In this document: in pieces, positions 1,746 through 59,006 of the stretch | Layout of the letters: each line of letters begins with the position of its first letter | Numbering within the stretch: position 1 is the first letter of the stretch | Assembly: GCA_012401045.1 (NCBI GenBank) | Contig: GCA_012401045.1_4704.2 | Direction: 5' to 3' (one strand) | Source of the DNA: a phage | DNA: 64,000 nucleotides | Notes under the pieces: model-generated | What the model saw: the letters and a program-made list of their open reading frames with translations, nothing else | Told to the model about the DNA's origin: nothing | Databases searched by the model: none | Made by a program: the position numbers and the translations under genes

Positions 1746-1794
1746 GCATAGAAACCTCCCCCAACCCTTGCGGGCTGAGGGAGGCTGACTTATG
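1746..1794 (-). terminator. palindromic GC-rich hairpin (GCATA-CCTCCC...GGGAGG-TATG family) downstream of capsid gene
   Basis: Inverted repeat with polypyrimidine/polypurine arms, extended by GCATA/TATG flanks. Confidence 0.55.
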
Positions 1795-1883
1795 TATCAC
1801 GGTGCCGGATGAATGTCCGGTGCAATGAAACCATCCGCAACGTTGTCATCAAGAATATCATCCAACGAAGCAGCTACGGTAGT

Positions 1884-4106
1884 TCAGTTAGTCTGAACCG
1901 GCAGCTTGATGTTTTCAGTGTAGACCTTACGCAGGTTCACAACGTTAATCAGACCCAGCAGCGGGCAGTTGTTAACGAAGCGGCAGCGCGGCTGAACCAT
2001 GGTTTCTTTAGAAACCTGACCGTTACGGGTAACCTGAGCAACAGATACCAGTTCCGGTACGTACAGGAACATACCGAAGGTCAGCGGATCCGGAGAACCC
2101 TGGATACCACGAGACAGGGTCACGAAGATCTTATCGCGCAGCATGACGTTCGGGTTATCTACAACCACGAAGTTGAAGCTTACACCGACGGTACGGAAAT
2201 CGCCATCGGTCTGCAGGAACTGCGGGATGTAGTTGTCAGTTGCTACTACGCAACGCGGTTTCTCATCGGCGTTGGAAGACAGCAGCTGCAGAGCTGGCTG
2301 ATAACCAGACTCGGAGTACATGCGGTATGCCATCTCACGAATCACGTTCATGATCGCAGCAGACACTTCAGCACGACGTTCTGCAGTGGTGGTACCCTGA
2401 ACAGATTTCTCCAGGTCCAGATTGATTTCTTCGAACCACGGACGGATCAGGTAACGACCGAAACCTTCGATCTGGATGTCACCGAACTGACGGAAGCGAG
2501 AGGTCGCAACCGCTTTCAGTGCGTCTTTGTAGCTGAACAGTTTCTCAACCATCAGGTTGTCGAAACGTGCGTTAGCAGCTTGGATCAGAACGTCCAGGTC
2601 AGCAGCGTTTTCTTCCCAATCCAGCGGACGAGGAATGGAGAACGGAGCCAGCAGGCCGATTGCGTAACGTTCTTGCTTCATGTTGAAGTCAAGGTGCTTA
2701 CCGCGTTCACGACGGTTGCTGTTGTTACGGCGGATACGCAGTTCGTAACCAACCAGTTTGAAGCTCAGGTCTTCAGCCAGTTGTTTGAACTCTTCGCTCT
2801 TACGCGGTTGTTCGATGTTGTCCTGATCAACCAGGCGATACAGTTCAGCGTTAGCGCCGTTAACACGCAGACCCGCTTTCTCTACGTTGGAAGAACCGTA
2901 AACTTCGATCGCCAGCTGAGCAGCAGATTTCGCATCGATGATGTCCTGCAGCGCTTCGGCTTTCGCACCTTTAACGTCTTTGGTGTTCTCATCAACGAAG
3001 ATGGAGTGGGTGTCGAACGCCAGGGTCATTTTGCGGAAGTCGCCTTCCAGGGATTTCTGGAAACCGTTGGTGATCAGACCAGATACGTCGAACGGTACGT
3101 AAGAGGTTTTGCTGTGCTTGGTAGATTTGATTTCCACCAGGATTTTGGTCAGCGTGATCTGGGCGTCCAGCGCGTCGGTGTTGTCGCTATAACCGTTAGC
3201 CAGGATGCTATCGTCTTCAGCGATACCGATCATGTCGATCAGTTTATCAACAGCCAGGTAAGACGTTTTATAAGTTACGCCTTTAATTTCGATGTCGCGC
3301 GGAGCAACGATAGCTTTGTCAACGAAGTACTGCGCGTTAGCATCGTCAGCACGATAGATCGGATGCAGATCGGTCACGTCGTTGGACAGAACGTCGTTGT
3401 ACATGAACGCATCCAGCAGCGGACGACGTACCCAATCAGCCGGAGTACCGTCGGCGTTACGACGCAGGTGGTTGAACACCAGCGGACGACGGAAAGATAC
3501 GTCGTAACCGATCTGGTTCGGAGCCAGAACGATGGTGTTGTACAGTTCGTTACCCATGCGGCTCAGACGAGAAGCCTTCACGTTGAACACAACGGAGTAC
3601 GGCATCATGTCACGCAGTTCTTTCTGGTCGTAGGACAGCTGAACCAGTTCTTCAGATTCGCAACCGCAGGAATCAGCAGCCATCATGACGAAGTTAGAGC
3701 TGTCAACTTCACGGCCAGACGGAGTGGTGCTGATGTTCATGGAACGTGCTTGTTTAGCATATTCCACCGGGTTACCATGAGCCAGCATGATCAGTGCTGC
3801 TGCACGAGCCTGCTGTGCGTTCATGGTGAACAGCTGTTCTTCAATACGCTGCTTCTCTTCCGGAGTGGTGGTTTCGAAGCCCAGCATGGACAGAACCGGT
3901 TCTTCTGCTTTACGGATGTCGCTGCTGAAGCTCTTAACATCCATTTCGTTAACCAGTTTGTCCATGGATTTGAAATCAACCTTAGAAGCAGATTCCATAG
4001 ACAGGAAGGTGTTCTCCAGACCTTTGTCTGCTGGTTTGCTACCATTAGCGGTCAGGAACTGGCGAGTGGCCGCGACCTGTTGGCTAAGAAGGGTTTTATC
4101 ATTCAT
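1884..4106 (-). CDS. putative major capsid protein (740 aa); tail sheath not excluded
   Basis: Long ORF with strongly host-optimal codon usage (cgt/ctg/ggt/aac/gaa), AAGGA RBS 8 nt before ATG, hairpin terminator downstream. Size matches major capsid proteins of phiKZ-like phages. No homology search run. Confidence 0.45.
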   Translation of the reverse strand: MNDKTLLSQQVAATRQFLTANGSKPADKGLENTFLSMESASKVDFKSMDKLVNEMDVKSFSSDIRKAEEPVLSMLGFETTTPEEKQRIEEQLFTMNAQQARAAALIMLAHGNPVEYAKQARSMNISTTPSGREVDSSNFVMMAADSCGCESEELVQLSYDQKELRDMMPYSVVFNVKASRLSRMGNELYNTIVLAPNQIGYDVSFRRPLVFNHLRRNADGTPADWVRRPLLDAFMYNDVLSNDVTDLHPIYRADDANAQYFVDKAIVAPRDIEIKGVTYKTSYLAVDKLIDMIGIAEDDSILANGYSDNTDALDAQITLTKILVEIKSTKHSKTSYVPFDVSGLITNGFQKSLEGDFRKMTLAFDTHSIFVDENTKDVKGAKAEALQDIIDAKSAAQLAIEVYGSSNVEKAGLRVNGANAELYRLVDQDNIEQPRKSEEFKQLAEDLSFKLVGYELRIRRNNSNRRERGKHLDFNMKQERYAIGLLAPFSIPRPLDWEENAADLDVLIQAANARFDNLMVEKLFSYKDALKAVATSRFRQFGDIQIEGFGRYLIRPWFEEINLDLEKSVQGTTTAERRAEVSAAIMNVIREMAYRMYSESGYQPALQLLSSNADEKPRCVVATDNYIPQFLQTDGDFRTVGVSFNFVVVDNPNVMLRDKIFVTLSRGIQGSPDPLTFGMFLYVPELVSVAQVTRNGQVSKETMVQPRCRFVNNCPLLGLINVVNLRKVYTENIKLPVQTN

Positions 4107-4255
4107 TGAAAGTATCCTTTACAGAATTAACTTATATAAGTCGGTCGATAGACCATAGCGTACACGCGTGCATGCGCCACTATAGTATCAGTAAACACTT
4201 ACCGTTATTGAGGTCGTGATACAACACTAAAAATGCCGCATAACTTTTCCCTACG

Positions 4256-4876
4256 TCATAAACGACGCAGGCGATAATGGATGGAACGATTGGTGCAATA
4301 TGAACGGAACAGCGGCAATTGCGCAACTTCCGCAAGACTCATATTAATTCGCAGGTGTTCAATAACGGCGCTGTAGTTATCAGCAATACGATCGCTCAAT
4401 AACTCTTCTGCCAATAAAGGAAGACAATCGACAACAATCGCGATCACATCCTCATTAACATAACGCACCCGAACACTCAACGGACGTTTGTCTGGGCTGT
4501 AAGTTGGATCCGCCAAACGACGTTCAATATCACGCGGATAGCTCGTCAGTAAATGGTAATAACCATTGTCATAACGATTGATGTACTCACACAGCACATC
4601 AACATTCTTCTCTGGCGGCAAACCTGTTTCGTCATAGTGATACGCAAACATACCACCAAGCAGGTTGTTAAGATGAACCGCAGGGTTCGCTTGTTCGTGT
4701 TCTTTCGTGATGAAGAAAGGCACATTTTGAGCTGCGAAATAAAAACCTACATCATTGGGCGATAGTATGCCGAAAAGACTTTTAGGGTCTAATAACACCT
4801 GTAAGTCATCACGCGCATTTCGAATAATCGCGTGTTCTACCCAATTCGGAACGACGAGATATCGGAGTTCCTTCAT
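4256..4876 (-). CDS. hypothetical protein (206 aa), immediately upstream of capsid gene
   Basis: ATG start with AGAGG RBS ~9 nt upstream; no recognisable motif. Confidence 0.7.
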   Translation of the reverse strand: MKELRYLVVPNWVEHAIIRNARDDLQVLLDPKSLFGILSPNDVGFYFAAQNVPFFITKEHEQANPAVHLNNLLGGMFAYHYDETGLPPEKNVDVLCEYINRYDNGYYHLLTSYPRDIERRLADPTYSPDKRPLSVRVRYVNEDVIAIVVDCLPLLAEELLSDRIADNYSAVIEHLRINMSLAEVAQLPLFRSYCTNRSIHYRLRRL

Positions 4877-4915
4877 TATGATTACCTCTTTGCAAGTATC
4901 GAAAGGATTGAGTCG

Positions 4916-6526
4916 ATGGACCCAAAACAGATAGCCATTAAGATTATTACGTTACTGTTTCGTAATGCACAATTGAACCATCCCGATCCCAGTACGATCG
5001 AACATGTTAAATCCGTCTTAGATAAAGTCGAACCCCCGAAAAACCATCTCGCTACAGACGTAGATAGAGAGGTTTTCAACAACCTGATGAATACCATTCA
5101 TTGGATGTTGGAACAACCATTATCGGAACCTTTCGATAAACAACAGTTGTTACAAAGGATACGTTTGGATTGCCTTGAACAAAGCAATCTTTACGAGATT
5201 CTTGCCGACGGACTGTACGATATCGAAGACGACGCTCATATCAGTAAGGTCTGTTCACTCTATTACAACGAATTACGTAATCTGATTACCCGTCGTCGTG
5301 TTTTCGAAACCTTTAGAAACACGTACATGGATATCAGTAACGGGCGACTTGGGGATAAAGAATTTTTCGATGCAATGGCGAATCTGAAATTATCGCTAGA
5401 CAGTATCGAAATGGATACCGAAAATCCCGAAGAGATGTCGTGTATGATTGACGGCTTTATCGCTGACAGCGAAGACGATATCGAGAAAGTCGAACGTATG
5501 TTCGTCAAAGCGATGGAACGTAACAGTCCTGAAGGTGGATTTGTAACCGGCTGGCAAGGCTTTAATAAAATGTTGGGGTCGGTCGGCGTTTTACGTCGCG
5601 GTACCTTAGGACTGATCGGTGCAATGCAGCACCGGAACAAGTCAGGCGTGTTGTTAAAACTGTTCACACATCTGGCATTGTACAACAAACCCCATTTCTT
5701 TTTCCCGGAGCGAGCAAAGAAAGCATTACTGATTCATTTGTCGACAGAAAACGAAGTGGAAGAAAACACGCTTCAGATATACAAGAACATGCGAGAACAG
5801 GAAACAGGCGAATATGTCGATATTCGTAAGATTGACCCTCGCGAGGCATCACGTTATGTGTTGAAGGTGTTCAACGATGCGGGTTTCTCTGTTTGTATGC
5901 GTCGTGTTGATGGGATGAGTTATAAACAACTCGCTAATCTCATCGACCATTTCGAACGCATGGGTTATGAAGTCATGGCGTTGTTCATTGACTATCTGAA
6001 AATGTTCTCATCGGAAGGGTTGGATAGAAATGGACCGACCGGCGCATGGCTCCAAGAACTCTTCAACAAAGTACGTAACCTCTGCAGCGTCAAACGTATT
6101 TTAGGTATGACTGTACACCAGCTGTCATCCGATGCGAAGATGCGTGCGCGTGATGGTAACGATGAAGAGTTTGTTGACCAGGTCGCAGGTTTAAGTTACT
6201 GGGATGGTTGTAAAGGGATCGACCGTGAGATTGACCTTGAAGTGATTGTTGATATCGTTAAGGAGCCGGGCAAACGTCAAAGCTGGCAGGTCTTTGCGTT
6301 AGGGAAAGACCGTCAACCGGATAACGGTTCAACGAAACCTGAAGACAAACATTTCGCGATGCCATTCCAAACCATCGGGATGCTTCCTGATGATTACGGT
6401 AAGAAAGCAGTATATTGCCGCAAGGTTGGCGGACAACCTGTCTCCGAGGGAGGTAAAGGTCCGTGGAACAAGTTCGATGAAAACGCAGCACCGAGTAATG
6501 AATTACAATTTGATTTAGAATTTTAA
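4916..6526 (+). CDS. hypothetical protein (536 aa)
   Basis: Track ORF 4832..6526 starts at GTG inside the divergent gene; first ATG at 4916 has GAAAGGA RBS 8 nt upstream. Ends at a bidirectional terminator. Confidence 0.7.
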   Translation: MDPKQIAIKIITLLFRNAQLNHPDPSTIEHVKSVLDKVEPPKNHLATDVDREVFNNLMNTIHWMLEQPLSEPFDKQQLLQRIRLDCLEQSNLYEILADGLYDIEDDAHISKVCSLYYNELRNLITRRRVFETFRNTYMDISNGRLGDKEFFDAMANLKLSLDSIEMDTENPEEMSCMIDGFIADSEDDIEKVERMFVKAMERNSPEGGFVTGWQGFNKMLGSVGVLRRGTLGLIGAMQHRNKSGVLLKLFTHLALYNKPHFFFPERAKKALLIHLSTENEVEENTLQIYKNMREQETGEYVDIRKIDPREASRYVLKVFNDAGFSVCMRRVDGMSYKQLANLIDHFERMGYEVMALFIDYLKMFSSEGLDRNGPTGAWLQELFNKVRNLCSVKRILGMTVHQLSSDAKMRARDGNDEEFVDQVAGLSYWDGCKGIDREIDLEVIVDIVKEPGKRQSWQVFALGKDRQPDNGSTKPEDKHFAMPFQTIGMLPDDYGKKAVYCRKVGGQPVSEGGKGPWNKFDENAAPSNELQFDLEF

Positions 6527-6530
6527 ACGC

Positions 6531-6590
6531 AAAAAAAAAAAAAGATTGTACGGTTCCCTCCTCCAACCCGTAAGGGAAGGAGGAAGGTTT
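6531..6590. terminator. bidirectional intrinsic terminator (A13 run plus CCCTCCTCC...GGAGGAAGG hairpin) between convergent genes
   Basis: Hairpin flanked by a 13-nt A run on plus strand (T run for minus-strand transcripts). Confidence 0.7.
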
Positions 6591-6603
6591 ATGACCGCTT
6601 TGA

Positions 6604-6930
6604 TTAACTTATTGTCATGAATTCATTAGGTGAAAATTTCCAGCCGTTCTCAGTGAGAAGCGTGTTGAGTTTTGCCGCAACGATAAGCCATGCATGCATG
6701 GCCGTTACATCGTATTGGCGATTCACTCGACGTTGGTTTTCGATATTGATTTGCTCCTGTTCAGTGATGTTTGGATAAAGTGCGATAGCGCTAGGTTTAC
6801 CCAGCGCGCTAGTCATCACCGCCGTACATTCACTGATAATGTTGTTTAAGTGGTAGTTATACACCGTTCCACGCATGACGCGATGACGGCATTCGATAAT
6901 AGCGTCGTAAATGATTTCTCGAGTAATCAT
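6604..6930 (-). CDS. hypothetical protein (108 aa)
   Basis: ATG-initiated ORF immediately upstream of the hairpin plus T-run terminator. Confidence 0.6.
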   Translation of the reverse strand: MITREIIYDAIIECRHRVMRGTVYNYHLNNIISECTAVMTSALGKPSAIALYPNITEQEQINIENQRRVNRQYDVTAMHAWLIVAAKLNTLLTENGWKFSPNEFMTIS

Positions 6931-8053: not shown

Positions 8054-8956
8054 TTACTTAGCCTTTGAGTTATACGGACTAACATGTTGTTGTACTCGTT
8101 GGATTGTATCGTAGTACGGGTTAAGTTGATTGAACATGTTGTTGTGTGGGTGATAGCCATATGGCGCATTTTGCCTTGTTGGTGAGAAACCTTGTTGAGA
8201 AGGACGGTTTGAATTAACCGCGAGTACGTAGTAAACCAAATTTTGGCGGTCGAACGTTCCTTCGTTTTTGAAGGTGTCGGCGTAGGCGCTTACCGCTGGA
8301 GCGAGCCTATCACCATCGGTTGTAATGATTGTGCCATCGGGATAAACTTCCCGAACGACGCACCATGTTCCGATGAGAACATCTTTGGGTGATGTATTAC
8401 CGTATCCGGTTGTAACGGTAAGGTAAGTATCGAACCCTTCAGAACAACAAGGATGACGATAGATGGGTCCTGTCATTTCCAGTCTATCGGTGTCACCGCA
8501 TTTCTCTATTGAGAGCGATGATGTGTCGGTTTTGAAATTGTCAAATTCTTTCTTTAAGTCGATTACGGGTTCTTTCGTATAGTACTTCTTGATTGCTTTG
8601 ACGTAAAGATCGGGAACGGTTGTCAGCAATCCGTTATACCTGATTCTCAGGTTTTCGAGTAATCCAAAGATGCTCGCGCATGCCTGTTCGCGAGGTTTTG
8701 TAAGATAAGAGATCCCCCCAGGAACGCTGGGATCTTTGAGAAAGAAGATTGCGTTATTGTCGTTGTGCGATGCGTTGAAGAAAACGATTGATTCGATATA
8801 TACGGAGCATAGGCTGTCGTTGGCGTCGTCAGATAACACCCAGATGCACTCATCGGTCGTCTTGTTTAAAAGTTCTGTTTTGTCGACCAAACGTTGTTTC
8901 ATTGCGAGGAAATGTGCCTGTTGTTCAGCGGATAATTCACGATAAATGGTGGTCAT
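8054..8956 (-). CDS. hypothetical protein (300 aa), paralog of 9042..9824
   Basis: AAGGAG RBS; shares [YF]D[RT]YLT[IV]T-G and RE[IV]YPDG-I[VI]T blocks with the adjacent gene. Confidence 0.7.
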   Translation of the reverse strand: MTTIYRELSAEQQAHFLAMKQRLVDKTELLNKTTDECIWVLSDDANDSLCSVYIESIVFFNASHNDNNAIFFLKDPSVPGGISYLTKPREQACASIFGLLENLRIRYNGLLTTVPDLYVKAIKKYYTKEPVIDLKKEFDNFKTDTSSLSIEKCGDTDRLEMTGPIYRHPCCSEGFDTYLTVTTGYGNTSPKDVLIGTWCVVREVYPDGTIITTDGDRLAPAVSAYADTFKNEGTFDRQNLVYYVLAVNSNRPSQQGFSPTRQNAPYGYHPHNNMFNQLNPYYDTIQRVQQHVSPYNSKAK

Positions 8957-9041: not shown

Positions 9042-9824
9042 TTAATCGGGATCGGCGTAGAAATGGTGAGGATAGCCGGAGTACGATCCCGCGTTACCGG
9101 TTATGGATTCTTTCTGGGAATCGACGACGAGTGCATAGAACTGTCGGGAATTTGTTAGCGTTGAGAAATAAGAGGAAAGGACTTTTTCATTCAACGCATC
9201 GCAAGGTAGACAGGTGCGACCGCAAAACGTCACGATACGGCCGTCAGGATAGATCTCACGAATCATTCTCCACTCGCCAATATCGACTGGTGATGGCGCT
9301 GCTACACCACCTGTTATCGTTAAGTAACGATCGTACGTGGTATGGCATTCAGGATGAACGTAAATCGGTTGGGCATCAATACTATCGTTTTCTGTTTGAT
9401 CTTTATTCACGTATACCTCAAGGTAGATTGTTGGTAACCCGGTTAGAACGCCAGTGTCACGACGTTTTTTGGTAATCCGGGGACGGATATTATCGAGCAC
9501 GCCTTCCAGTTTTTCTGCGACTTCGTCAGCCGGTAATATATACCCGTATGTTGGTTCTGGGTCATCACCGTGGCTAAATAAGATACGACAGTCGTTTTTA
9601 TTAAATTCTATATCTTCAGGTGGGAAGATGATGACGCGAACCGTATGGCGTTCTGCGATATAAAATCCTTCAGGCCCCTCAGTTTTGGTAAGTGTAAAGG
9701 ACCAGGATGAATGATCTTCAAGTGACGTGCCTGCCAGGAAAAAGTCCGCCCGAATTGGTGCGTTCCATTTCGCGATCATATTGGCGTGACCAATAACGCC
9801 TAATTTTTGATAAATATCTGTCAT
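9042..9824 (-). CDS. hypothetical protein (260 aa), paralog of 8054..8956
   Basis: ATG with GAGG RBS; conserved promoter-like motif lies upstream; paralogy as above. Confidence 0.7.
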   Translation of the reverse strand: MTDIYQKLGVIGHANMIAKWNAPIRADFFLAGTSLEDHSSWSFTLTKTEGPEGFYIAERHTVRVIIFPPEDIEFNKNDCRILFSHGDDPEPTYGYILPADEVAEKLEGVLDNIRPRITKKRRDTGVLTGLPTIYLEVYVNKDQTENDSIDAQPIYVHPECHTTYDRYLTITGGVAAPSPVDIGEWRMIREIYPDGRIVTFCGRTCLPCDALNEKVLSSYFSTLTNSRQFYALVVDSQKESITGNAGSYSGYPHHFYADPD

Positions 9825-9910: not shown

Positions 9911-9930
9911 GAGTAATGCGAAATAAGACA

Positions 9931-9975
9931 GCATAAGCCCTCTCCCAACCCGTAAGGGAAGGGAGAGGGAATATT
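9931..9975 (-). terminator. hairpin of the GCATA-CCCTCTCCC...GGGAGAGGG family
   Basis: Abuts stop of 9974..11341. Confidence 0.55.
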
Positions 9976-11341
9976 AAACGGTTGGACGAACGGTGTTGTC
10001 TTTTTCTGGTGCAAGCCATAACGTGACCGTACCATGGCATGTCCACTGTGGTTCACGTACAGAAGAACCTGCCATTGTAACAGCGCAATCGGTACGCATG
10101 ATAACCCCGTATGCTTCGCAGAGATTGTTATCTTGCATCCACACAACTTTAGCAGGCATGCCGGGATACAACATATCCATGTTTGCGTATTCCCACACCA
10201 ACTGCATTGTTCTACCGCGTAATCCAGCAGTATTACTTAATTCACGCCATCGGTTATCGGTTACGCGTCCCATCCCTTTCGCCACCTTCACGTTATCGCT
10301 ACGTTCTTCAGTTACGTACTCGCTAACGTTTACGGTACGACTGATTATCGTATCACCCCCTTTTGATAACGTCATTCCCTGACTCATCTGACTTGCCGAA
10401 ACAAAACGCCCACCCGCATTACCTAACAACGAAGCCGCGTTATTGATGTCGCTTACCGACGCCCCTCTCGTACATGCAATTTCCACGTATTTGTCACGAT
10501 TGATCCAGGTCTTGTCCATGCCCGGAAACATGTCGGCAGGATAGTTGTAAAAGATAGCCGTGCGCCGACCGTCAGAGAAACGGGTTTCGTCGTAGAGAGG
10601 ATAAATATACAGATACGGAGATTGATAATAACAACCGACATCCGCTGAATAAATACCGACCTGGTTCTGGATTTTGTCTACGAGATCCATTGCGTTGGTG
10701 CCGTGCGGAAGAATAAGCAACTTGAACAGGTTGTCGTTATTCGGTGCAACAATATCCACGCCCTGCATTTTGAACCCGGTGTCGGCTTCAACCGCAGAAA
10801 GTATCTTGCTGAATTCGAGCCGTAACACATCCAGCACTTTCGACCCGGTATAGTTTTCACCGGTTTCTGATTGCATGAAGCTTTCAAGAACAGGATCGAA
10901 CAGTTGAAATTGAAGATCGACCATTTGTTCGTAGTCTTTCTTCGAAGAATCGGTTGCGGTACGTTCGTCGTTAGCAGACATACGACTGTCTACGGTTGTT
11001 AAACAAACCGCTCGGTAGACGTAAGCTTGTGCGGCATCGTCTACGGTTTGGCGTTGTCCGCGCATCAGGCTGTACGCCTGCACGATGATGCGCATTTTAA
11101 GTTGTTGTTGGTACGGTAGAATGTATTTTCCGTAACTGCCGGGCGGGAACTTTACAGAGATATAGAGTTCATCTCCAGCGTTACGTTCATAGTCTCGATA
11201 CGTGTGGACTTGAGTCACTAAAGGAACAGACACCGTCATTGACGGCGTGATTAATTCCGCGGTGACTTTATACGCAACAGCAACTGCTTCCTGCGCAAAT
11301 GTACCGATATACCGTCCTAACGGCGTCTGTTTGTAATCCAT
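9974..11341 (-). CDS. hypothetical protein (455 aa), likely virion-associated
   Basis: Long ORF, stop abuts hairpin terminator; translationally coupled to upstream gene. Confidence 0.7.
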   Translation of the reverse strand: MDYKQTPLGRYIGTFAQEAVAVAYKVTAELITPSMTVSVPLVTQVHTYRDYERNAGDELYISVKFPPGSYGKYILPYQQQLKMRIIVQAYSLMRGQRQTVDDAAQAYVYRAVCLTTVDSRMSANDERTATDSSKKDYEQMVDLQFQLFDPVLESFMQSETGENYTGSKVLDVLRLEFSKILSAVEADTGFKMQGVDIVAPNNDNLFKLLILPHGTNAMDLVDKIQNQVGIYSADVGCYYQSPYLYIYPLYDETRFSDGRRTAIFYNYPADMFPGMDKTWINRDKYVEIACTRGASVSDINNAASLLGNAGGRFVSASQMSQGMTLSKGGDTIISRTVNVSEYVTEERSDNVKVAKGMGRVTDNRWRELSNTAGLRGRTMQLVWEYANMDMLYPGMPAKVVWMQDNNLCEAYGVIMRTDCAVTMAGSSVREPQWTCHGTVTLWLAPEKDNTVRPTV

Positions 11342-15190: not shown

Positions 15191-15235
15191 CGCAGATTCC
15201 TGTTTGAAAGATAAGATATCACATGATGGTCGACA

Positions 15236-15271
15236 GCATAAAGCCCACCCCGAAGGGCGGGCTGTTTATGC
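15236..15271 (-). terminator. hairpin variant (GCATAA-AGCCCACCC cgaa GGGCGGGCT-GTTTATGC)
   Basis: Immediately downstream of 15279..18656 stop. Confidence 0.5.
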
Positions 15272-15278
15272 GTACGGA

Positions 15279-18200
15279 TTACTTGTAGGCACCGCAATGG
15301 GCTTTGATGAGGAAAAGCACCGCTTGCATCGGTTTATTGAACTGTTGCCATAACGTCAATGCCGGATGGAACAACCAATCTTCCAGGCCGAGAACAATAC
15401 CGTAGTTAACGACATTATTAACATCGTTCTCAACGTTGAGTTCGCTATCCAGGAATTTATCGATTGAACGCAGGGTCTGCATGGCGTTGTCAGCAATAAG
15501 CCAAGCTTCATGTGCTTCACGAGCCGCACGCAGCACTGCCTCCAGTTCGCTGATAGTAGCTACCGGTAATTCCTCACTGGTGAGGTCGTCAGAAACCGTA
15601 AACTGGCGATTGATACCGGTGTAGATCCACTGCATCAGTTTCGCTGCTTCCTCGTTCGGGTTGTTACGCGTTGTCGCATAAGTCGCGCTCACCTTCACGA
15701 TGTGCGTTTCACCAAGATACGCTTTGGACCCAACACCTTTACGATCGCTGTCTTTCCACGGTTGTACGGTAGCGACCATGAGCTTATCCCATTTCTGAAT
15801 AGGAATACGCTTCAGACCAACAACCGATCCAGCGGATGTTTCGGACTGGTTGCTCTTCCGCACGTCGCTGAGCTCACGATCGATCGCAACGATTAATTCA
15901 CGCGTCATGTTACCAAGCATTTTGATTTCACCCAACGCAGCGATGAGCTTCTTCACATCGGTAACAGGTTCACCACCGATGGTAAGATGACGGATGAAAC
16001 GTTTCAGAATAATCCGTTCTGCTGCTGGGTTACCGCGCCGCGCTTTGGCCAACGCTTGCTGTGTTTCGGCGAACAGCTTATCCCATGGAGCCGTAGCGGC
16101 GGTATAGTAACGATGGTTGGTTTCAATCCAGTTACCGATACGGTTGACCGCGGTCTTAACGGTATCCATGAATCCTTCCATCGCAATTTCGGTAGCTTCG
16201 ACGTTACCCTGGAAGTTATCAGGACCGATCTCGCGTGCCGCTACCAGAATACCTTCCACCGCGCTCACCGCGTGGCGACCGATAGCCAGATTTCGCTGCG
16301 CTTCTTCAGCACGCTCAACGAATTCCACCACCGCAGGATCGTCAACGATTTCCACCTCAGCAACAACACGAGTACCAGCATCGCCTTCCAGTGTTTCGAT
16401 GGTGACAACAGGATCGTTTTCACCAGCAACATCCTGGTATTCTTCCTGTTTGAGATCGCCGTTATCAGCCGCTGCGACAGCGGTGAGTATACGAATGGTA
16501 ACATCGCCGAGTTCTTTTGCAGCGAATCCGTAAACGGTGCATGCGGTCGTTGCAAAGTTCATCAGGGTACGTGTGCGCTGCGTGACGTAGCGTGCGCCCG
16601 ATTCGTTTTCCACTTTGTCTAGATCGCGGAGTAACTGCTCAGCCGTCTCCTGAAGTTGAGTAGCTGCTTTCAGGAGGTCTTCGTCAAACAGTTTTGTTGA
16701 TGCATCGATCAGCATTTCAACGCTAACGTTGGGCGGTACAGCATCATCCTGCTGTTTCATGGCGCTAAGTTCGTAACGGAACTCACGAATGCCGTTTAAC
16801 GCGTCGTCGATAGAATATCCGAACGCTTTCACGCCCGCCATTCCAAGAGCTGCTTTCATTTCAGCTGGATGCTGAACTTGCTCGCCTTCCTTGCTGTTCT
16901 TTAACTCATCGAAATATTTCTTCGACGCGTCCGCAATACGTTTACTGTCTTTAACCGCATTTACGATCTTATCGACAGATTTCGAGTCGTTTGCGAGCAG
17001 CGTATCCAGTTTATTCCACTCAACGTCAACCTTCTTGGTGTCGCTCGGCGGAGGAAGCAGTTTCATCACTGGTGCTGTGCGTTGTTCTTTGGTCAGCTTG
17101 TTGGCCTTCTCTTCGATTTTTTTCTTATTAACACCAAAGAGATTTTTCAAACGCGCCACGAGGGCTTTTAAGAACTTCGCGACCGCTTCGTAAACCGATT
17201 TCAGAATCTGTTTAAAGCGACCCGGCTGCTTTTCCCCGTCTTCCAGATTGAGATCGCTGTTCAGTGCGACATCAAGCTGTTTGTACGATTCCATGATGTA
17301 TTCGTCTTTGATTTCAGGACGAATCTCGAAGCTTTCCATCGGACCTTCAGCCGGACGGAATTCCATTTTCAGTTCGCCTTGCAGGGTAGGGTCGACAATG
17401 GCGATCGCTTCACCCTGACCATCAGCGTTAAAGCGTTCAGCGTAACGAGTACGGCGAACAATAACACTCTTACCCCCGTCAAGACGACGTACCACCATGG
17501 TGCCAGGAATGTACGGTTGTTCTGTTTCAATGACGGTTACATCTGTTTCACCCTCACCGAGAATAACAGATGCACGCTGTTCAACAACAGGAACATCTAA
17601 TACACCACGGGCTTCCAGCTCTTGATGAATTTCGAACGACTCTTGTTTCAGATCTTCATCTTCTTCGTTTTCGTCGTCTTCATCATCGCCACCTTTGGTG
17701 TTTTCATCACCCTTGGTGGTTGTGTCGTCGGTGGCACCAGCGTCAGCGTCGGTGTTAGCAGGTTCTTCGGACGCAGGTTCGGTGGTGTTGTCCTCCGTGG
17801 ACGACCCGTCAGTGTTATCGACATCAACATCACCTTGCAGTTCTGTTTCCTGAGCAACTGCTTCGGCTTTCTGCTCGCCGGTATTGCCGTCATTAGCGTC
17901 AACGACAGGTTGTTCGTCAGCGACGGTATCTTCAACCTTTTCTACTTTCTCCACGACACGTTTAATCACGGTGACTTTGATGGGTTCTTCCGTCGTTTTG
18001 GTTTCTGGCGTCGCCTCGGCTACCTCAGCTGCTGTTTCAGCAACAGGTTCTGCTTTTTCCGGTTCGACGACATTGCCTTTAACACCTTCGGTGGTTTCTG
18101 CAGGTTGCGTCGCCTGTTCGATTTGTGCCGGATTGGTTGGATCGATGGCGTTAGCCGCATCCTGAATCTTGTTCTTCAGGTTGTCGCGGTCAGCGTTAAC

Positions 18201-41592: not shown

Positions 41593-41635
41593 TTCAAGTA
41601 GGTTGATCCTCGCTTAACAAAAAAGAAAACACATG

Positions 41636-41685
41636 CGAAGCCCCTCCCCCTGGCGGAAGCCGGAGGGAGGGGTGAGGTTTATGCG
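41636..41685. terminator. bidirectional hairpin (CCCCTCCC...GGGAGGGG) between convergent genes
   Basis: Between stop of DNA polymerase fragment gene (+) and stop of 41679..42164 (-). Confidence 0.55.
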
Positions 41686-42164
41686 CGTTCGTTACCAACC
41701 GTTACTTTGTAGTCAGCGTCGGTTAAGAAAATAGACAGGAATCCATGTTCTTTGCAAATCTTACTAAGGATGTCAGCAATGATTTCGTTGATCATCGGCT
41801 TGTTTGCAAGGGCATAGATGTACCCGGGTGTAAAAGAAAGTGCGTGATTGATCATAGGCTCATGAGAAGCCAAGATAAGGATCACGTGATGCTTCCCATC
41901 GTCGGTAACGACCGCTTGCGTAGACACGAAGAAATCAGTGAAGCAGCAGCGATCACAGGCTTTAGGTATATACAAGTCACCCAGAGCTTCGTCACGTGCT
42001 TTTACGTGTGTTTCAGGGGTGATGCTGCTAAGTTGATCTTCAGCGAGATCCAAGACATCCTCAATCGTTTTAAGAATAGCGTTGCGGAAATCCTCACGGT
42101 AGAATGGGATGATATCACGATCGTTCATGTAATCGCCGGATTCGATAGTAAAGTTGATGTTCAT
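41679..42164 (-). CDS. hypothetical protein (161 aa)
   Basis: AGGAG RBS 6 nt before ATG; convergent with DNA polymerase gene across a hairpin terminator. Confidence 0.65.
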   Translation of the reverse strand: MNINFTIESGDYMNDRDIIPFYREDFRNAILKTIEDVLDLAEDQLSSITPETHVKARDEALGDLYIPKACDRCCFTDFFVSTQAVVTDDGKHHVILILASHEPMINHALSFTPGYIYALANKPMINEIIADILSKICKEHGFLSIFLTDADYKVTVGNERA

Positions 42165-42234: not shown

Positions 42235-42699
42235 TTAGATATCGTCATCCGTGGTGCCGTAGGACATATGCTGAATTAATTTTCTCGGCTCGATGAAAAT
42301 ACGACATGTGATAAACACATCGGGATCGTATTGCTCCACGCAACGTCCGAAGGTTTGTTTTGCGGCTTGGCGCATCGATGTTATTTCCTGATCGTTCATC
42401 GCATTATCGAATTCGATGTTGATCGTGATTTTATCGGGAAATAAATAGATAAAGTAATCGCCGCTGATACCACCATCATCAAAGTGACGTTCATTGTAGC
42501 ACTGGACGAGCTTACCTTCACGTTCTTTCTGATACCATCCAAGGATACTATTAAGACCTCTGTCCACGCATTCGAATGCTTGAGTAATAACATCCTCAAC
42601 GACGGATGCAGGCGTGGGACCATTGAATAGACGATCTAAGCGCTTTTTCATCGATTTGGTTTTCTCGTTCATGATTTCTTTTCCTGTTATAATCGGCAT
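42235..42699 (-). CDS. hypothetical small protein (154 aa; alternative start at 42672)
   Basis: First ATG lies inside a hairpin element; internal ATG (codon 10) has AGGA RBS. C-terminal QYDPD resembles the EYDPD paralog family. Confidence 0.6.
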   Translation of the reverse strand: MPIITGKEIMNEKTKSMKKRLDRLFNGPTPASVVEDVITQAFECVDRGLNSILGWYQKEREGKLVQCYNERHFDDGGISGDYFIYLFPDKITINIEFDNAMNDQEITSMRQAAKQTFGRCVEQYDPDVFITCRIFIEPRKLIQHMSYGTTDDDI

Positions 42700-42740
42700 A
42701 CAACCCTTCCCCGGCCTGATGGCTAGGGAAGGGGCTATGC
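42696..42740 (-). terminator. hairpin variant (GCATA-CCCTTCCCC...GGGAAGGGG-CTATGC)
   Basis: Downstream of 42748..43146. Confidence 0.5.
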
Positions 42741-42747: not shown

Positions 42748-43146
42748 TTATGCTTCGCAATCAGCTGAAGGCGTCGCGCCTTTCTTACCAGCGATACACC
42801 AAATCCGACACGCTGGGTAATGGTTAACCTCTAGAGAGCAAGGAATGTTATATTTCTCTTCCAGCGCATAAAGACATTTCGTTAGCTGCTCCAGCGCGTT
42901 CTCGTCGTGTCGTAACGCGTGGTGGCCTAATCGATGTTGGTCGTTCTTTATATACGCCTCGAAGAGAACATGTTGGCGATGTACGCTGACGTTTACAGCC
43001 TCGAGTATAGCTTGGTCGAGCATACGACTAAAGCACATCAACGAGTCAGATACGTTTTCTCGCTTAACCAGATCAATCATGGCGGGAATATACGAATGGT
43101 CGATGTTATCGATGACCGCTTTAGCGACGGAATCAGCAACGTTCAT
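42748..43146 (-). CDS. small protein (~132 aa), paralog of 43183..43578
   Basis: Track ORF starts at GTG (43176); first ATG (codon 11) aligns with the paralog N-terminus; shared EEKYNIP[CF]SLEVN block. Confidence 0.65.
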   Translation of the reverse strand: MNVADSVAKAVIDNIDHSYIPAMIDLVKRENVSDSLMCFSRMLDQAILEAVNVSVHRQHVLFEAYIKNDQHRLGHHALRHDENALEQLTKCLYALEEKYNIPCSLEVNHYPACRIWCIAGKKGATPSADCEA

Positions 43147-43182
43147 CTTTTTAATCCCTAGTTTGTTATTGATCACGTATAT

Positions 43183-46512: not shown

Positions 46513-46610
46513 ATCGAATTCCTTAAATTCTCTTGAGTTCAATTAATGATGAAAAGCTGTAAAAAAAGGTGGGGCGAACCCCACCAAAACGTCAGACACA
46601 CGCAGGAAAA

Positions 46611-47135: not shown

Positions 47136-47156
47136 CGTTAACACGAAATAAAAACA

Positions 47157-47212
47157 GCATAGAACCCTCCTCCCCCATCCTTCAAGAGGACGGTGGGAAG
47201 AGGGAGAGATTA
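47157..47212 (-). terminator. hairpin of the CCCTCCTCCC...GGGAAGAGGG family
   Basis: Overlaps stop of 47210..47611; followed on minus strand by the conserved promoter-like motif. Confidence 0.5.
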
Positions 47213-47611
47213 AATGTCGTGGACGGCAATGCCGTTTAACCAGCAATACAGCTTAACGCGACACGGATACCGCTTCGTTGCGGCAACCATTTCATCGCGT
47301 AAACGCTGGTAGATTTCATCCTGGTGTTCACGTTCAATGGGGTAATCAGCCCAACATTCGATCATGACATCACCATTCGTCAGAATCGTCGTACGCATCC
47401 TGTCCTGGATACGGCGGTCTTTCCCGGCATTAGGGAAATACATTCCTTCAGTACGAATAAGGTCGCCGCAGGGCATGACTAACCATTCGTTCGTTTTGCC
47501 GGTATTCTTATAATCCATTACGGCTTGCATTGCGGTGTCAACGCTAAAAGAAACATAATTCCAAACGGATGTCCAACGATAGATTGCGGGTTGTTCGAGT
47601 GTTTCGTTCAT
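47210..47611 (-). CDS. hypothetical protein (133 aa)
   Basis: ATG-initiated ORF followed by hairpin element at stop. Confidence 0.6.
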   Translation of the reverse strand: MNETLEQPAIYRWTSVWNYVSFSVDTAMQAVMDYKNTGKTNEWLVMPCGDLIRTEGMYFPNAGKDRRIQDRMRTTILTNGDVMIECWADYPIEREHQDEIYQRLRDEMVAATKRYPCRVKLYCWLNGIAVHDI

Positions 47612-47657
47612 GGAGTGCTTGTCCTATTTTTATTTTCTGCACAGGATAAATTCAACG

Positions 47658-47707
47658 GCATAAAGCCCTTCCCTGCCCTTATATGGGGCGGGAAGAGTTT
47701 ATGACCG
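47658..47707 (-). terminator. hairpin variant (GCATAA-AGCCCTTCCC...GGGCGGGAAG-TTTATG)
   Basis: In the ~210-nt spacer downstream of 47825..48451. Confidence 0.45.
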
Positions 47708-47824: not shown

Positions 47825-48451
47825 TTATGCGAAGCGACGCATGTAACCCGCCAGATAGTTACGCGTATCGAAGTAAGCAATTTCAGGAATTGCGATATTA
47901 AGGTCGATAGCGCGGATTTCAACTTGGCGACGGCTTTCATCATAGATCGCATCCATCAGACGCAGTACTGTCAGGAAAGCCATGCGGGTATGGTAGTCCA
48001 GCGGCATGTTATCGATACCGCGATACAGATAACGGTTTGCATTAAATGCCCCTTCGCTGTTATCTTTCCAGATCTTCAGAATATCAGCAAAGGCGGTGCG
48101 GAAAACTTCAGGATTATCCACATCCAGTAACGCACGGAAAGCAGACATTAAAGACCGCTGATGACGGATCAACGACTGCGGCGTTTGCGGCATGGTCGGA
48201 CCCATTTCTTCCGCATATTTCTGGAACGGAGCAACCAGGGTTGCGGCACGAGAAGCCACGATAGAAACAGCAGGCGATTCTTTCACCGCCGGTTTCGCAG
48301 GCTTTTCTTCAACAACGGTTTCCTTCTTCTCAACAGCGACCGTTTCCGGCTGTGCTACAACATCACTAACCGGAGCATCTGCAACGGTGGTTTCTACCGC
48401 AGTAATCTCCTCGTCCATTTTTGCAGAACGTTGGTCTTTATTCTTGCTCAT
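47825..48451 (-). CDS. hypothetical protein (208 aa) downstream of RNA polymerase fragment gene
   Basis: AAGGA RBS; Ala/Val/Glu-rich N-terminal region. Confidence 0.65.
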   Translation of the reverse strand: MSKNKDQRSAKMDEEITAVETTVADAPVSDVVAQPETVAVEKKETVVEEKPAKPAVKESPAVSIVASRAATLVAPFQKYAEEMGPTMPQTPQSLIRHQRSLMSAFRALLDVDNPEVFRTAFADILKIWKDNSEGAFNANRYLYRGIDNMPLDYHTRMAFLTVLRLMDAIYDESRRQVEIRAIDLNIAIPEIAYFDTRNYLAGYMRRFA

Positions 48452-48476: not shown

Positions 48477-49778
48477 TTAACTAATATAAAGTTCAGGATC
48501 GTAAGGCGCTAACGATACACTGGCGTTATGCATTGCTTTCATCATAGTGTTCATGAAAACGTTGTTTACACCGGTGATCTCTGCCCCGATCGCGTCTGGG
48601 GTTGGAGCCATCGCGTTACCGCAACAGGTAGCACAGTATTCCAATGGGCCTGCTTTACAACGTTGAGGATCGCGTAACTTGATGGTTTGTCCTTCCAAGG
48701 AAGCAAGTAATTCAGCATCAATAAGTTTAAGCGCCGCACCGTCGATCATGTAACGGCCGACAAGCAGCTTATCTTTGATATGATCGCGGTTTACCGTGAA
48801 CAGAATATGTTCGTGGGTACCGCAGTCGTCCATCGTGATTTTAAGGTTCTGTGTCGCACGTTGTGATTCTTTCGCCGTCTGTCCCGCTAAAGCGGTCAGT
48901 GCGCCACGTGAGAACGAACCTGCACGTGCACTGTTGTTGTACTCCGCCCAATGGTCGACACGCATCCCTTCAGCCAGGCTGTGTGTGATAACGTTACGTT
49001 TACCAGGGTCAACGAAGTCGGCTTCAACCCCCATCATGATGTGTGTTTTCTTTCGAGTATTACCGAAACTCTTGCCTGGGTTAATATAGAACCCTTCCGA
49101 TTCGTCGCCCTTAAAGGATTCTTTATCCATTTTGGTTAGCGTGGCTTCGAGTTTGATCAGTTCTTCAGGCGTGAACTTACCTTCCTCTTGTAAGCGTGCT
49201 AACTCTTTATCGCGATAGGCAATAATATCATCATCGACCGTTAACGCTTTATCACTCATTGATGGAACAATTAAACGGTTGATAGCGGTTAATGCGCTGA
49301 TATTGTTGGTGAATTTCTTCACTTCGCTTGCGTACAACGGACCAATTGGACGTTCGTTAGGATCGGGTATTCCCTCTTCAGGATCGTCCGCTACGCGTGG
49401 CGCAATCAGTGACTCCAGTGTACCGCTGGTCAACCGTCCTGCCTGGTATTCAATCTGAATACCGAAAGCATCATAAAGGACGTACATATTGAACAACGCT
49501 TCACCGAAGGTTGTGGTGGTTGTATTCTTAACCGACGGTAGATCACCAGGTGCAAGCTCCAATGACTCCCAGAAACTCAACAAGGGTTTTGTTGGCTCGG
49601 TTTCCCATTGGTGTTCTTCACCGTCGATGGTAACCGTAACGACGTTACCTTGACGACGTAATTTAGGCTGATACTTCTCAGCGCCGCCTTCCGTAAAAGC
49701 AAATGCGTCGTTAATCCATTCAAGATAACGGTAGTGCCCTTCACGCATCGCGTAAAGGAAATATTCACGAGGTGTCAT
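48477..49778 (-). CDS. multisubunit RNA polymerase beta-prime-like fragment (bridge helix region; 433 aa)
   Basis: AAGGAG RBS. EGMRVDHWAEYNNSARAGSFSRGALTALAGQTA resembles the beta-prime bridge helix ([27 protein letters not shown]); TMDDCGTHEH matches the DDCGTHEG segment that follows it in bacterial RpoC. No NADFDGD, so it is a fragment. Confidence 0.55.
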   Translation of the reverse strand: MTPREYFLYAMREGHYRYLEWINDAFAFTEGGAEKYQPKLRRQGNVVTVTIDGEEHQWETEPTKPLLSFWESLELAPGDLPSVKNTTTTTFGEALFNMYVLYDAFGIQIEYQAGRLTSGTLESLIAPRVADDPEEGIPDPNERPIGPLYASEVKKFTNNISALTAINRLIVPSMSDKALTVDDDIIAYRDKELARLQEEGKFTPEELIKLEATLTKMDKESFKGDESEGFYINPGKSFGNTRKKTHIMMGVEADFVDPGKRNVITHSLAEGMRVDHWAEYNNSARAGSFSRGALTALAGQTAKESQRATQNLKITMDDCGTHEHILFTVNRDHIKDKLLVGRYMIDGAALKLIDAELLASLEGQTIKLRDPQRCKAGPLEYCATCCGNAMAPTPDAIGAEITGVNNVFMNTMMKAMHNASVSLAPYDPELYIS

Positions 49779-53008: not shown

Positions 53009-53338
53009 ATGAAGCTGAACATCGAAATGGGTATTGCGTACGATACCATGTTTGGCTTGTACGATCGTGTTAACGAATGGACGCCGTTGAAATGGGTTGC
53101 TCAGCATCCCGCTGAAGATCCCTGGGACAGATTGGGGATTAAACCCTTAATCGAAGATTATGTCCGATTCGGTATTAAAGAGTTCATGACGCTGGATGCG
53201 TTTTTAAAAGCACCGTATCCTTACGCGCAAACGGTACTCAAAATCGCACAAGACGAACTGCGGAAACGTAGTGCGGTACTGGACGACGATGAGGACAAGT
53301 TACGACGAGAAGAAGAACGTTTACGAAACGGAAAATAA
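53009..53338 (+). CDS. hypothetical protein (109 aa) or 3' portion of a frameshift product
   Basis: ATG at 53009 has a weak RBS; its frame is open for ~190 nt upstream, overlapping the end of the 561-aa ORF. Confidence 0.5.
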   Translation: MKLNIEMGIAYDTMFGLYDRVNEWTPLKWVAQHPAEDPWDRLGIKPLIEDYVRFGIKEFMTLDAFLKAPYPYAQTVLKIAQDELRKRSAVLDDDEDKLRREEERLRNGK

Positions 53339-53339
53339 A

Positions 53340-53849
53340 ATGGCAAGATTTACCAGTTTGATTGGATTGGATATTTGGGAAACACCGGCTGACGTTCGGG
53401 TTATTCCTGTTAACACCGTCGGTGTGATGGGACGTGGTCTTGCCAAACAGGCAGCCGATCGTGTGCCCGGTCTTCTTGAAGCGTACCGTAAGCAATGTCA
53501 AGATGGGTTTAAGGTGGGCGAAGTCGTATCGTATCAGCAAGGCGAGAACGATCAGCTCACTTACGTGTTGTTTCCATCAAAATCGGATTGGCGTGAAAGA
53601 ACACGACGCGAGTATATCGTTAACGGTTTACTGGCGTTAAAAGCATGGTTACTGGAGCTTCAGTTCGAAAGAGACGGCTTCTCATATCGGCGTCCGGCTG
53701 AACCGCTGATCGTTGCAATTCCTCCGGTCGGTTCTGGTTGCGGTAATATCGGTTACGGACAATCCGAAACAATCCAGCCTCAATGGGTACGCGCACAAAT
53801 CAAACAGTATCTTGCCACCGTACCAAACGTTCATTTCTACTTGTTCTAA
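53340..53849 (+). CDS. macro-domain-like protein (ADP-ribose binding/processing; ~169 aa)
   Basis: Track ORF 53271..53849; ATG at 53340 directly follows upstream stop. VIPVNTVGVMGRGLAKQAA resembles the macro-domain glycine-rich loop; IPPVGSGCGNIGY resembles its second loop. Confidence 0.5.
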   Translation: MARFTSLIGLDIWETPADVRVIPVNTVGVMGRGLAKQAADRVPGLLEAYRKQCQDGFKVGEVVSYQQGENDQLTYVLFPSKSDWRERTRREYIVNGLLALKAWLLELQFERDGFSYRRPAEPLIVAIPPVGSGCGNIGYGQSETIQPQWVRAQIKQYLATVPNVHFYLF

Positions 53850-53859
53850 TGCAAAGGTA

Positions 53860-53905
53860 ACATAACCCTCCTCCAACCCGTAAGGGAAGGAGGAGGGCTT
53901 ATGCT
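53860..53905. terminator. bidirectional hairpin (CCCTCCTCC aacccgtaaggg AAGGAGGAGGG) between convergent genes
   Basis: Between stop of macro-domain gene (+) and stop of 53907..54281 (-). Confidence 0.6.
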
Positions 53906-53906
53906 G

Positions 53907-54281
53907 TTAATGTTCGTTCCAGATGGCATCTTCCGGTGGAACAATAGGATCTTTCTTCGGCATTGACGGTACTTCATGACGATGCTTACGGAATTGCCTA
54001 TCGATAACCTCACGAAGCCGGTACGCATCAACCCATGTTGATTTATTGAACAGCTCCAATGTCACAGTTAATCGTGTTCTTGACATTGAATAGCTTTTCT
54101 TTGCAATCAAATTGGGATAATTCAGTTGAGCGAACCACGCACGTATTTGTGCTTCGGTAAAAGCGATGCTGTAATAACTAAGTTTACCGTCATTAAAATC
54201 GTGCGCGTGGGTGTAACGTCCAGCGTAACGCCAGACAAGATGCACATTCAGATCGATCCATGGTGGGGTGGTATCAGCCAT
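53907..54281 (-). CDS. hypothetical protein (124 aa)
   Basis: GAGGG RBS; hairpin terminator after stop. Confidence 0.6.
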   Translation of the reverse strand: MADTTPPWIDLNVHLVWRYAGRYTHAHDFNDGKLSYYSIAFTEAQIRAWFAQLNYPNLIAKKSYSMSRTRLTVTLELFNKSTWVDAYRLREVIDRQFRKHRHEVPSMPKKDPIVPPEDAIWNEH

Positions 54282-58158: not shown

Positions 58159-58260
58159 GGTGTTGTCCTATACGTTGGTGGTTGAGGTGGCGGATATCGG
58201 ATGCGTGTTGTCGTCAGGTAATACATACAGAAACGCCCACTGATAAAACAGCAGCTTCTT

Positions 58261-58917
58261 TTAAATTGAATTTAGATATCGCTTACCACCAACAAACGAC
58301 GTCAACCAGTTCCCTGAAACAAGCTGCGAAGCCCAGCCAGGCACTGCCCTACCGTTCTGACTCATCACGTTACCTGCCCATCCCGGAAAACCTGGTACCA
58401 TTTCGTATATATTGAACGATTCTATCTGGAACGAACCAAGCTTAACGTAGTGCGTTGTTGATCGGTACTTAAATTCAATAATAACAAAGAACGGATGTGA
58501 TTGTAAGTCGGACATTCTAATAGGTGCCGAGAGATTACCCGCCGACCATGGTTTCCACGTATGCTTACGGCTATCACAGTCAATATTACCCATTGAACCG
58601 TTAGCTGACGCGTTCCAGAATAGCTTATAGTCATACGCGGCGACATCGCCACTCCATCCTTGGAGAGGTATATTTGGTACATATACCCCGTTATTCCATT
58701 GTCCGTGTTGAATTTCTTCAGCATCGCCATGCCCAGAGACATATTCTAAGTACGCGTTTGGGTGTCTAGCGACGACTTCTCGCGCAAAAGAACGCAAGTC
58801 AAAAAGATGGGCGACAATGCTGTTATTATAAGCCACTCTCCAGCCGGGATCACGCCACCCTAATTTGCCGTCAGCGTGCCTTCTAGACGTGAACCCTATA
58901 GTTCGCGCTATTGCCAT
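58261..58917 (-). CDS. hypothetical protein (~218 aa), paralog of 57517..58158
   Basis: Track ORF extends to 58968 inside a hairpin; internal ATG (codon 18) has GAGG RBS and aligns with the paralog N-terminus (MAI...). Confidence 0.6.
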   Translation of the reverse strand: MAIARTIGFTSRRHADGKLGWRDPGWRVAYNNSIVAHLFDLRSFAREVVARHPNAYLEYVSGHGDAEEIQHGQWNNGVYVPNIPLQGWSGDVAAYDYKLFWNASANGSMGNIDCDSRKHTWKPWSAGNLSAPIRMSDLQSHPFFVIIEFKYRSTTHYVKLGSFQIESFNIYEMVPGFPGWAGNVMSQNGRAVPGWASQLVSGNWLTSFVGGKRYLNSI

Positions 58918-58963
58918 TTTATACCTCGTTCCTATTCTCAAAAAGGAAATTTCATACGATGAC

Positions 58964-59006
58964 GCCATAGCAGCTCCTCCAACCCGTCAGGGAAGGAGGA
59001 GCATAC
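58964..59006 (-). terminator. hairpin (GCTCCTCC aacccgtcaggg AAGGAGGAGC) downstream of lipoprotein gene
   Basis: Loop sequence identical or near-identical to other family members. Confidence 0.55.

Follow-up and report, generated by a model that had tools for sequence, protein, structure and literature searches.

The 64,000 nt stretch analysed here (contig GCA_012401045.1_4704.2 of NCBI GenBank assembly GCA_012401045.1; hereafter, the window) carries thirteen palindromic hairpin elements, labelled sites a to m, with the module consensus ACRGCATAA, pyrimidine arm, loop, purine arm, YTTATGCYGT. They are very probably factor-independent hairpin terminators, conserved across the phiKZ-like jumbo phages (Chimalliviridae) that have their own multisubunit RNA polymerases.

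The 30000-38000 region of the window matches only Escherichia phage vB_EcoM_Goslar (megablast, 93.6% identity, 98% of the query). Genes that could be named are those for the major head protein (1884-4106, minus strand), a DNA polymerase (39841-41592, plus strand) and a fragment of a phage RNA polymerase beta-subunit (48477-49778; phrog_2962, E 3e-106). Because of the identity to Goslar and these three genes, the phage is assigned by sequence to the Goslar-type chimalliviruses, jumbo phages that form a nucleus and possess multisubunit RNA polymerases of their own. Two further relatives, contigs R1 and R2, were found in IMG/VR at 90-98.5% identity, and neither is identical to the window. Scans of the window with Rfam models and for tRNA genes gave no matches.

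The thirteen putative terminators are listed below; the four at convergent junctions are given without a strand, and bit scores are from a covariance model.

Site a, 1744-1794, minus strand: after the major head protein gene (1884-4106, minus) and before 110-1552 (minus); tail UUUCUAUGCCGU.
Site b, 6547-6597: convergent junction of 4832-6526 (plus) and 6604-6930 (minus); canonical two-tier hairpin, plus-strand tail TTTATGACCG; 60.9 bits.
Site c, 9928-9975, minus strand: after 9974-11341 (minus); sense tail CUUAUGCUGU, 9/9 against the consensus.
Site d, 15233-15272, minus strand: after 15279-18656 (minus); short phiKZ-like stem GCCCGCCC-UUCG-GGGUGGGC, tail UUUAUGCUGU.
Site e, 21162-21209, minus strand: after 21212-22501 (minus); canonical two-tier hairpin, tail UUUAUGGCGU; 66.5 bits.
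Site f, 23867-23913, minus strand: after 23930-25252 (minus); canonical stem CCCUCUCCC/GGGAGAGGG, tail UUCUAUGCCG; 72.7 bits.
Site g, 32142-32192: convergent junction of 29136-32129 (plus) and 32192-35041 (minus); TATGC tails on both strands, 8/9 and 7/9.
Site h, 41629-41684: convergent junction of the DNA polymerase gene (39841-41592, plus) and 41679-42164 (minus); variant stem CCCCTCCCCC/GGAGGGAGGGG with an inner GGC/GCC helix.
Site i, 42694-42740, minus strand: after 42748-43176 (minus); variant stem CCCCUUCCC with an inner GCC helix, tail UUGUAUGCCG; E 7.6e-4.
Site j, 47154-47204, minus strand: after 47210-47611 (minus); long variant hairpin, tail UUCUAUGCUGUUUUU.
Site k, 47655-47707, minus strand: after 47825-48451 (minus); variant stem, helix extended by the flanks, tail CUUUAUGCCGU (9/9).
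Site l, 53859-53907: convergent junction of a macro-domain gene (53271-53849, plus) and 53907-54281 (minus); canonical hairpin, plus-strand tail CTTATGCTGT (9/9); 70.1 bits.
Site m, 58961-59006, minus strand: after 59011-59517 (minus); canonical core with a shorter outer stem, tail UGCUAUGGCG; 53 bits.

Placement and synteny

On a curated map of the window (56 genes, 55 junctions), the elements occupy every convergent junction (4/4) and 9/43 tandem junctions between minus-strand genes, and are absent from tandem plus-strand junctions (0/4) and divergent junctions (0/4). The sequence-only reading had placed them at the 3' ends of genes or between convergent genes, and the map bears this out, with 0/13 lying inside a real gene. 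Site j overlaps only a spurious reading frame of 65 codons, which is left unannotated in Goslar. Goslar has an element at the syntenic position of each of the 13 sites, as do contigs R1 and R2 where these cover the site; presence/absence polymorphism, which would mark a mobile repeat of the repetitive extragenic palindrome (REP) or miniature inverted-repeat transposable element (MITE) type, was not seen in any of these comparisons. Just 2/13 of the Goslar orthologs are annotated as terminators, those of site d ('putative transcriptional terminator') and site l.

Gene content beside some elements differs between the two phages. Three minus-strand genes of the window (58261-58968, 8054-8956 and 9042-9824) are missing from Goslar and have no Pfam match, and they are located in the stretch that transcription would reach downstream of sites m and c. 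In the reverse case, an HNH/NUMOD1 endonuclease gene of Goslar (Goslar_00069), just before the terminator at site h, is missing from the window. The deposited Goslar record begins inside a terminator hairpin (1-37) and ends just past another (237234-237289), so this linear record seems to have been cut arbitrarily, at or near a terminator. An open reading frame of 766 codons (1809-4109, plus strand) runs antisense to the gene for the major head protein upstream of site a, and is probably a shadow reading frame.

Hairpin structure and covariation

An unbiased scan for folds, together with a search for hairpins that pair a pyrimidine arm with a purine arm, recovered all of the 13 hairpins described from sequence alone. 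Each element folds into a stable hairpin on both strands (13/13), with folding energies of -21 to -34 kcal/mol across elements and strands and z-scores of -3 to -9. The window has 8 perfect pyrimidine-arm/purine-arm hairpins of 7 bp or longer, and Goslar has 35; the chance expectation for the window is about 0.07 (2 hits in 30 first-order Markov simulations). The proposal that all copies share GCATA/TATGC flanks stands for the module in general, with exceptions: the 5' CATA is missing at site b, and the plus-strand TATG at sites c, j and m. Similarly, a single hairpin module describes the canonical copies, while site d and sites h to k differ in their stems and loops.

Most Goslar-lineage copies are two-tiered: a 2 x 2 internal loop separates an outer stem of 9 bp from an inner CCC/GGG helix, which is capped by a variable tetraloop. 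In the sense RNA the bases of the internal loop are UU/UU at almost all of the sites, the alternative being AA/AA. This rule holds for 18/20 canonical copies on the minus strand, and one plus-strand copy that follows plus-strand genes conforms to it too.

An alignment of the 13 copies by MAFFT was poor, as stem and loop lengths vary, and 20 canonical copies of equal length were used instead. Stem pairing is kept in 98.7% of the cells of this alignment, 5/12 pairs show changes on both sides, and 25 cells carry double changes compared with 7.7 in shuffled alignments (0/500 shuffles reach 25). Site l and its Goslar ortholog are separated by two compensatory stem changes (CCCTCCTCC/GGAGGAGGG versus CCCTCTCCC/GGGAGAGGG). 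At sites a, d and j, G.U pairs are confined to the transcribed strand, which argues for selection at the level of RNA. The sense RNA of site a uses such pairs to form a continuous helix of 15 bp (-31.3 kcal/mol, compared with -21.4 antisense), and the corresponding energies at site j are -31.4 and -24.8 kcal/mol.

Some copies have been rearranged. The core of site m (58973-59002), comprising internal loop, inner helix and tetraloop, is exactly inverted in Goslar (97885-97914) and in contig R2, and that of site b (6556-6587) is exactly inverted in contig R1 (locus L016), with unchanged flanks in both cases; these are hairpin flips by recombination or template switching within the palindrome. 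The loops at sites e and g have both changed from GTAA to AACA in the window, matching the Goslar copy at 15778. Loops turn over fast, and some copies appear to convert one another.

If the elements played no part in transcription and acted only as DNA (a cruciform, a site for protein binding or a mobile repeat of the REP/MITE kind), then near-identical copies at different loci, signs of copy-to-copy conversion, inverted cores and lineage-specific genes inserted beside some copies might all be expected, and all are seen. The same explanation would have to accommodate a full set of syntenic copies (13/13) without gain or loss, a strict confinement to gene 3' ends with never a divergent junction, G.U pairs on the transcribed strand only, and a tail that is asymmetric relative to the direction of transcription. 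These features make a purely DNA-level role hardly credible.

Correspondence with mapped terminators of phiKZ and 201phi2-1

In phiKZ, 133 transcript 3'-end (termination) regions have been mapped by Oxford Nanopore Technologies (ONT)-cappable-seq, and 61 of these terminator regions have in common the motif BCCYCCCCHWWDGGGRRGGBYTTATKYYGT, in which a TTAT region comes after a hairpin; six of the phiKZ terminators are bidirectional and lie between convergent genes (Putzeys et al. 2024, PMC10914365). The same motif was found in 201phi2-1 (n = 59 terminators), where a second motif (B) elongates the hairpin and longer stems are stronger, and eight cloned 201phi2-1 terminators were active in an in vivo terminator trap, giving strong termination (PMC11512511).

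The tail part of the phiKZ motif (GGBYTTATKYYGT) has 10 matches in the window against 2.8 expected, 6 of the 10 being at five of the elements, and site d differs from the full published consensus by 3 mismatches over 29 nt (match at 15233-15261). The comparison also works in the opposite direction. Covariance model R1, built from Goslar-lineage copies only, was run on 100 kb of phiKZ sequence and detects sites in loci L007 and L008 at E 3e-6 to 1e-3, the same ones that fit the published consensus. The phiKZ copies bear the same mirrored flanks as those of the window, for example aacagcataagCCCTCCC...GGGAGGGCTTATGCTGT. An element of this type lies 3' of the major capsid gene in both phages (site a in the window; gp120 in phiKZ). 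About 15 other jumbo contigs, 228-315 kb in length, also carry the hairpin-plus-tail module. Degenerate 16-mer matches on small viral contigs were rejected as chance, the hairpin being present only at the jumbo-contig matches.

The window elements and the phiKZ motif are alike in having a pyrimidine 5' arm, a purine 3' arm and a tetraloop, in lying after genes and being bidirectional at convergent junctions, and in an identical tail, (C)TTATG(C/T)YGT, and an identical mirrored 5' flank (ACAGCATAAG). They differ in that phiKZ has a single stem of about 7-8 bp while most Goslar-lineage copies are longer and two-tiered, and in that 3' ends have been mapped in phiKZ whereas the Goslar-lineage copies are known from sequence. 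Motif A of 201phi2-1 resembles the phiKZ motif, and its elongation by motif B is analogous, from the published description, to the flank-extended palindrome seen here, although the host of that phage is a Pseudomonas. The hallmarks of a phiKZ-type terminator that can be read from sequence are all present: the stem-loop arms, the BYTTATKYYGT tail, similarity to phiKZ, the placement, and a jumbo phage with its own RNA polymerases. The impression from sequence that the elements look like terminators is upheld by their restriction to gene 3' ends, the occupation of every convergent junction, the match to the mapped phiKZ motif (PMC10914365) and the cross-detection by the covariance model.

A conserved tail in place of a U-tract

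The elements had been described as largely lacking long U-tracts, and a generic scan for a hairpin plus a T-run agrees, flagging 0/13 and finding no more sites in the window than expected by chance. None of the 13 has the tract of canonical intrinsic terminators, 5 or more T in 8 nt beginning 0-2 nt past the stem. Site b (given as 6531-6590) had been put forward as the single copy with a long U tract. Its A13/T13 run (6531-6543) is 12 nt off the stem, downstream of it on the minus strand, where TATG is missing, and is not a canonical U-tract. The sole clear classical intrinsic terminator of the window lies elsewhere, at 46568-46585 on the minus strand (GGTGGGGTTCGCCCCACC followed by T7; 46561-46585), and is annotated as a terminator in Goslar. 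A perfect 12 bp hairpin at 35000-35030 (CCTAGGGGAAGG-CTGAAAA-CCTTCCCCTAGG), between 35044-37839 (minus) and the likely start of the next gene, was considered as a further member of the family and rejected, as its purine arm comes first and it lacks the TTATG tail.

What follows the stem instead is TATG, embedded in the longer conserved tail YTTATGCYGT. TATG is the necessary core of phiKZ late promoters, its G being the start site, and is not sufficient by itself (PMC4666361); it is bound by a beta-like subunit of the polymerase (PMC12809450). The sequence-only reading had raised the idea of a coupled element, in which termination is followed by re-initiation; the TATG directly after the hairpin would be a phiKZ-type late promoter core, with its G at +1, for the next gene. 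All sense tails of the tandem sites in the window carry TATG (8/8, relaxed hairpin list), as this idea predicts, and the implied leaders of 24-194 nt are plausible.

The distribution of TATG follows transcription arriving at the hairpin. At the tandem sites of Goslar, an exact TATG lies within 14 nt of the stem on the sense side in 15/20 cases and on the other side in 4/20 (background 2.3%). The sense tail outscores its mirror image at all tandem sites that have a syntenic copy in the window, and at most of the remaining tandem sites of Goslar. At convergent sites, where transcripts arrive from both directions, TATG is equally common on each side in Goslar (13/19 and 13/19; 4/4 and 2/4 in the window); a promoter at such a junction could produce only antisense RNA. 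The YTTATGCYGT tail is also found in Goslar 3' of hairpins with ordinary stems that are not of the pyrimidine/purine type. There is no hairpin upstream of P119L, the best-characterised late promoter of phiKZ, or at the likely TATG promoter upstream of the capsid gene of the window (CGCTATGG). The tetranucleotide itself is what the elements share with the phiKZ late promoter, whose four-nucleotide logo has neither a hairpin nor the extended CYGT (PMC4666361, PMC12809450); the conserved YTTATGCYGT fits the published terminator logo instead. Neither transcriptome paper, on phiKZ or on 201phi2-1, reports start sites at terminators, the tables of start and end sites aside. A placement in which TATG drives the downstream gene independently of upstream transcription was not found at the elements, and with TATG alone being insufficient for promoter activity, coupled termination and re-initiation is quite unlikely. 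The tail tracks incoming transcription and behaves like a sequence-specific stand-in for the U-tract, forming the terminator's 3' module.

TATG is strongly avoided inside genes. Compared with synonymous-codon shuffles, the observed/expected ratio within Goslar genes is 0.69 (z -16) for the sense strand and 0.74 (z -7.3) for the antisense strand; the ratios within the genes of the window are likewise 0.69 and 0.74, and those within the phiKZ genes of loci L007 and L008 are 0.85 (z -7.2) and 0.92. A control segment of 36 kb from E. coli K-12 shows no depletion (0.98). The codon frames TAT-G and xxT-ATG are both affected. Given this counter-selection, TATG behaves as a functional signal in the lineage, a point in favour of the coupled element, and the avoidance is consistent with TATG being a signal to the polymerase in these phages. 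There is a slim chance that the TATG of the tail is read, in its non-template strand, by the pocket of the non-virion RNA polymerase that recognises TATG at late promoters, which would impose a sequence-specific pause under which a hairpin can terminate without a U-tract, or would permit the polymerase to be recycled at once at tandem junctions. If true, the same recognition would explain why TATG has been purged from coding sequence yet kept at nearly all of the terminators.

Another reading considered was that translation starts at the tail ATG, the purine arm serving as the Shine-Dalgarno sequence. This was rejected for site i, where a ribosome-binding site (AGGAAAAG) and a Goslar-annotated start lie 27 nt downstream. 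At site m, the open reading frame 58261-58968, one of the window-only genes without a Pfam match, begins at the tail ATG.

Promoter-like sequences

A 7-mer enrichment analysis of upstream regions returned the terminator tail, a word resembling a ribosome-binding site and ATATTAC only, with no extended late-promoter motif. ATATTAC, which is like the phiKZ early promoter, is enriched 12-fold in upstream regions of Goslar. The 200 nt gap after the terminator at site a (1552-1745 in the window) contains ACATTACC, which is like the phiKZ middle-promoter motif AAanTTACc. Sigma-70-type promoter matches in positions 1-60000 of the window are fewer than expected (10 versus 28.1, 15 versus 27.0 and 21 versus 35.6), a scarcity that fits a phage making no use of the host RNA polymerase.

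Proposed mechanism of termination

Bidirectional intrinsic terminators of bacteria consist of a GC-rich palindromic hairpin between an A-tract and a U-tract and serve convergent genes. The phage elements would work along similar lines. The nascent RNA is predicted to form a GC-rich hairpin of great stability, its 5' arm rich in pyrimidines and its 3' arm rich in purines; in the Goslar lineage this hairpin would usually have two tiers (9 bp, the UU/UU internal loop, 3 bp and a tetraloop). The moderately U-rich tail YUUAUGCYGU, directly after the hairpin, would replace the U-tract, and transcripts would end within it. The flank upstream of the hairpin, ACRGCAUAA, complements the tail and may act like an A-tract, so that the same palindrome could stop transcription arriving from the other side, as would happen at all of the convergent junctions. 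This flank may also extend the stem, a change that raised terminator strength in 201phi2-1. As in bacterial bidirectional terminators, the upstream flank complements the downstream tract; the differences are that the tract here is a specific sequence, UUAUGCYGU, and not a run of U, and that the polymerase is encoded by the phage.

Several points weigh against termination at these elements. The tail is not a classical U-tract, and the generic hairpin-plus-T-run scan passes over all 13 elements. The core flips at sites b and m mean that the orientation of the loop and internal loop is favoured and not obligatory. Structure, covariation, placement, the orientation rules and sequence-level identity with the phiKZ motif were observed directly in this study; that transcripts of this phage end at the elements we infer by homology. 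The mapped phiKZ 3' ends, in turn, could be processed or protected ends and not sites of release.

This last point leads to another explanation, in which the polymerase reads through and the hairpin stabilises or processes RNA 3' ends, by blocking 3'-to-5' exonucleases or by marking a cleavage site. The unusual stability of the hairpins (-26 to -34 kcal/mol), flanks that can close a blunt-ended stem and the missing U-tract would all suit such a role, and 3'-end mapping alone cannot tell termination from trimming. Eight homologous terminators of 201phi2-1, however, blocked expression of a downstream reporter in vivo (PMC11512511), and a conserved, orientation-dependent tail outside the stem would be needless for a pure exonuclease block. 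A role on the released transcript is compatible with termination and is not an alternative to it. Stabilisation or processing in place of termination is therefore very unlikely, and factor-independent termination by the phage polymerases remains by far the most probable function of the elements.

A terminator signal known from phages of Pseudomonas (phiKZ and 201phi2-1) is conserved, including its flanks and tail, in the Goslar-type phages of E. coli. It would offer a ready rule for setting the limits of transcription units in chimallivirus genomes whose annotation is poor, and the elements are candidates for strong, compact and bidirectional terminators in the engineering of E. coli phages. 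A conserved tail that is not a U-tract and genes that avoid TATG together suggest that these unusual polymerases make sequence-specific contacts with their stop signals.

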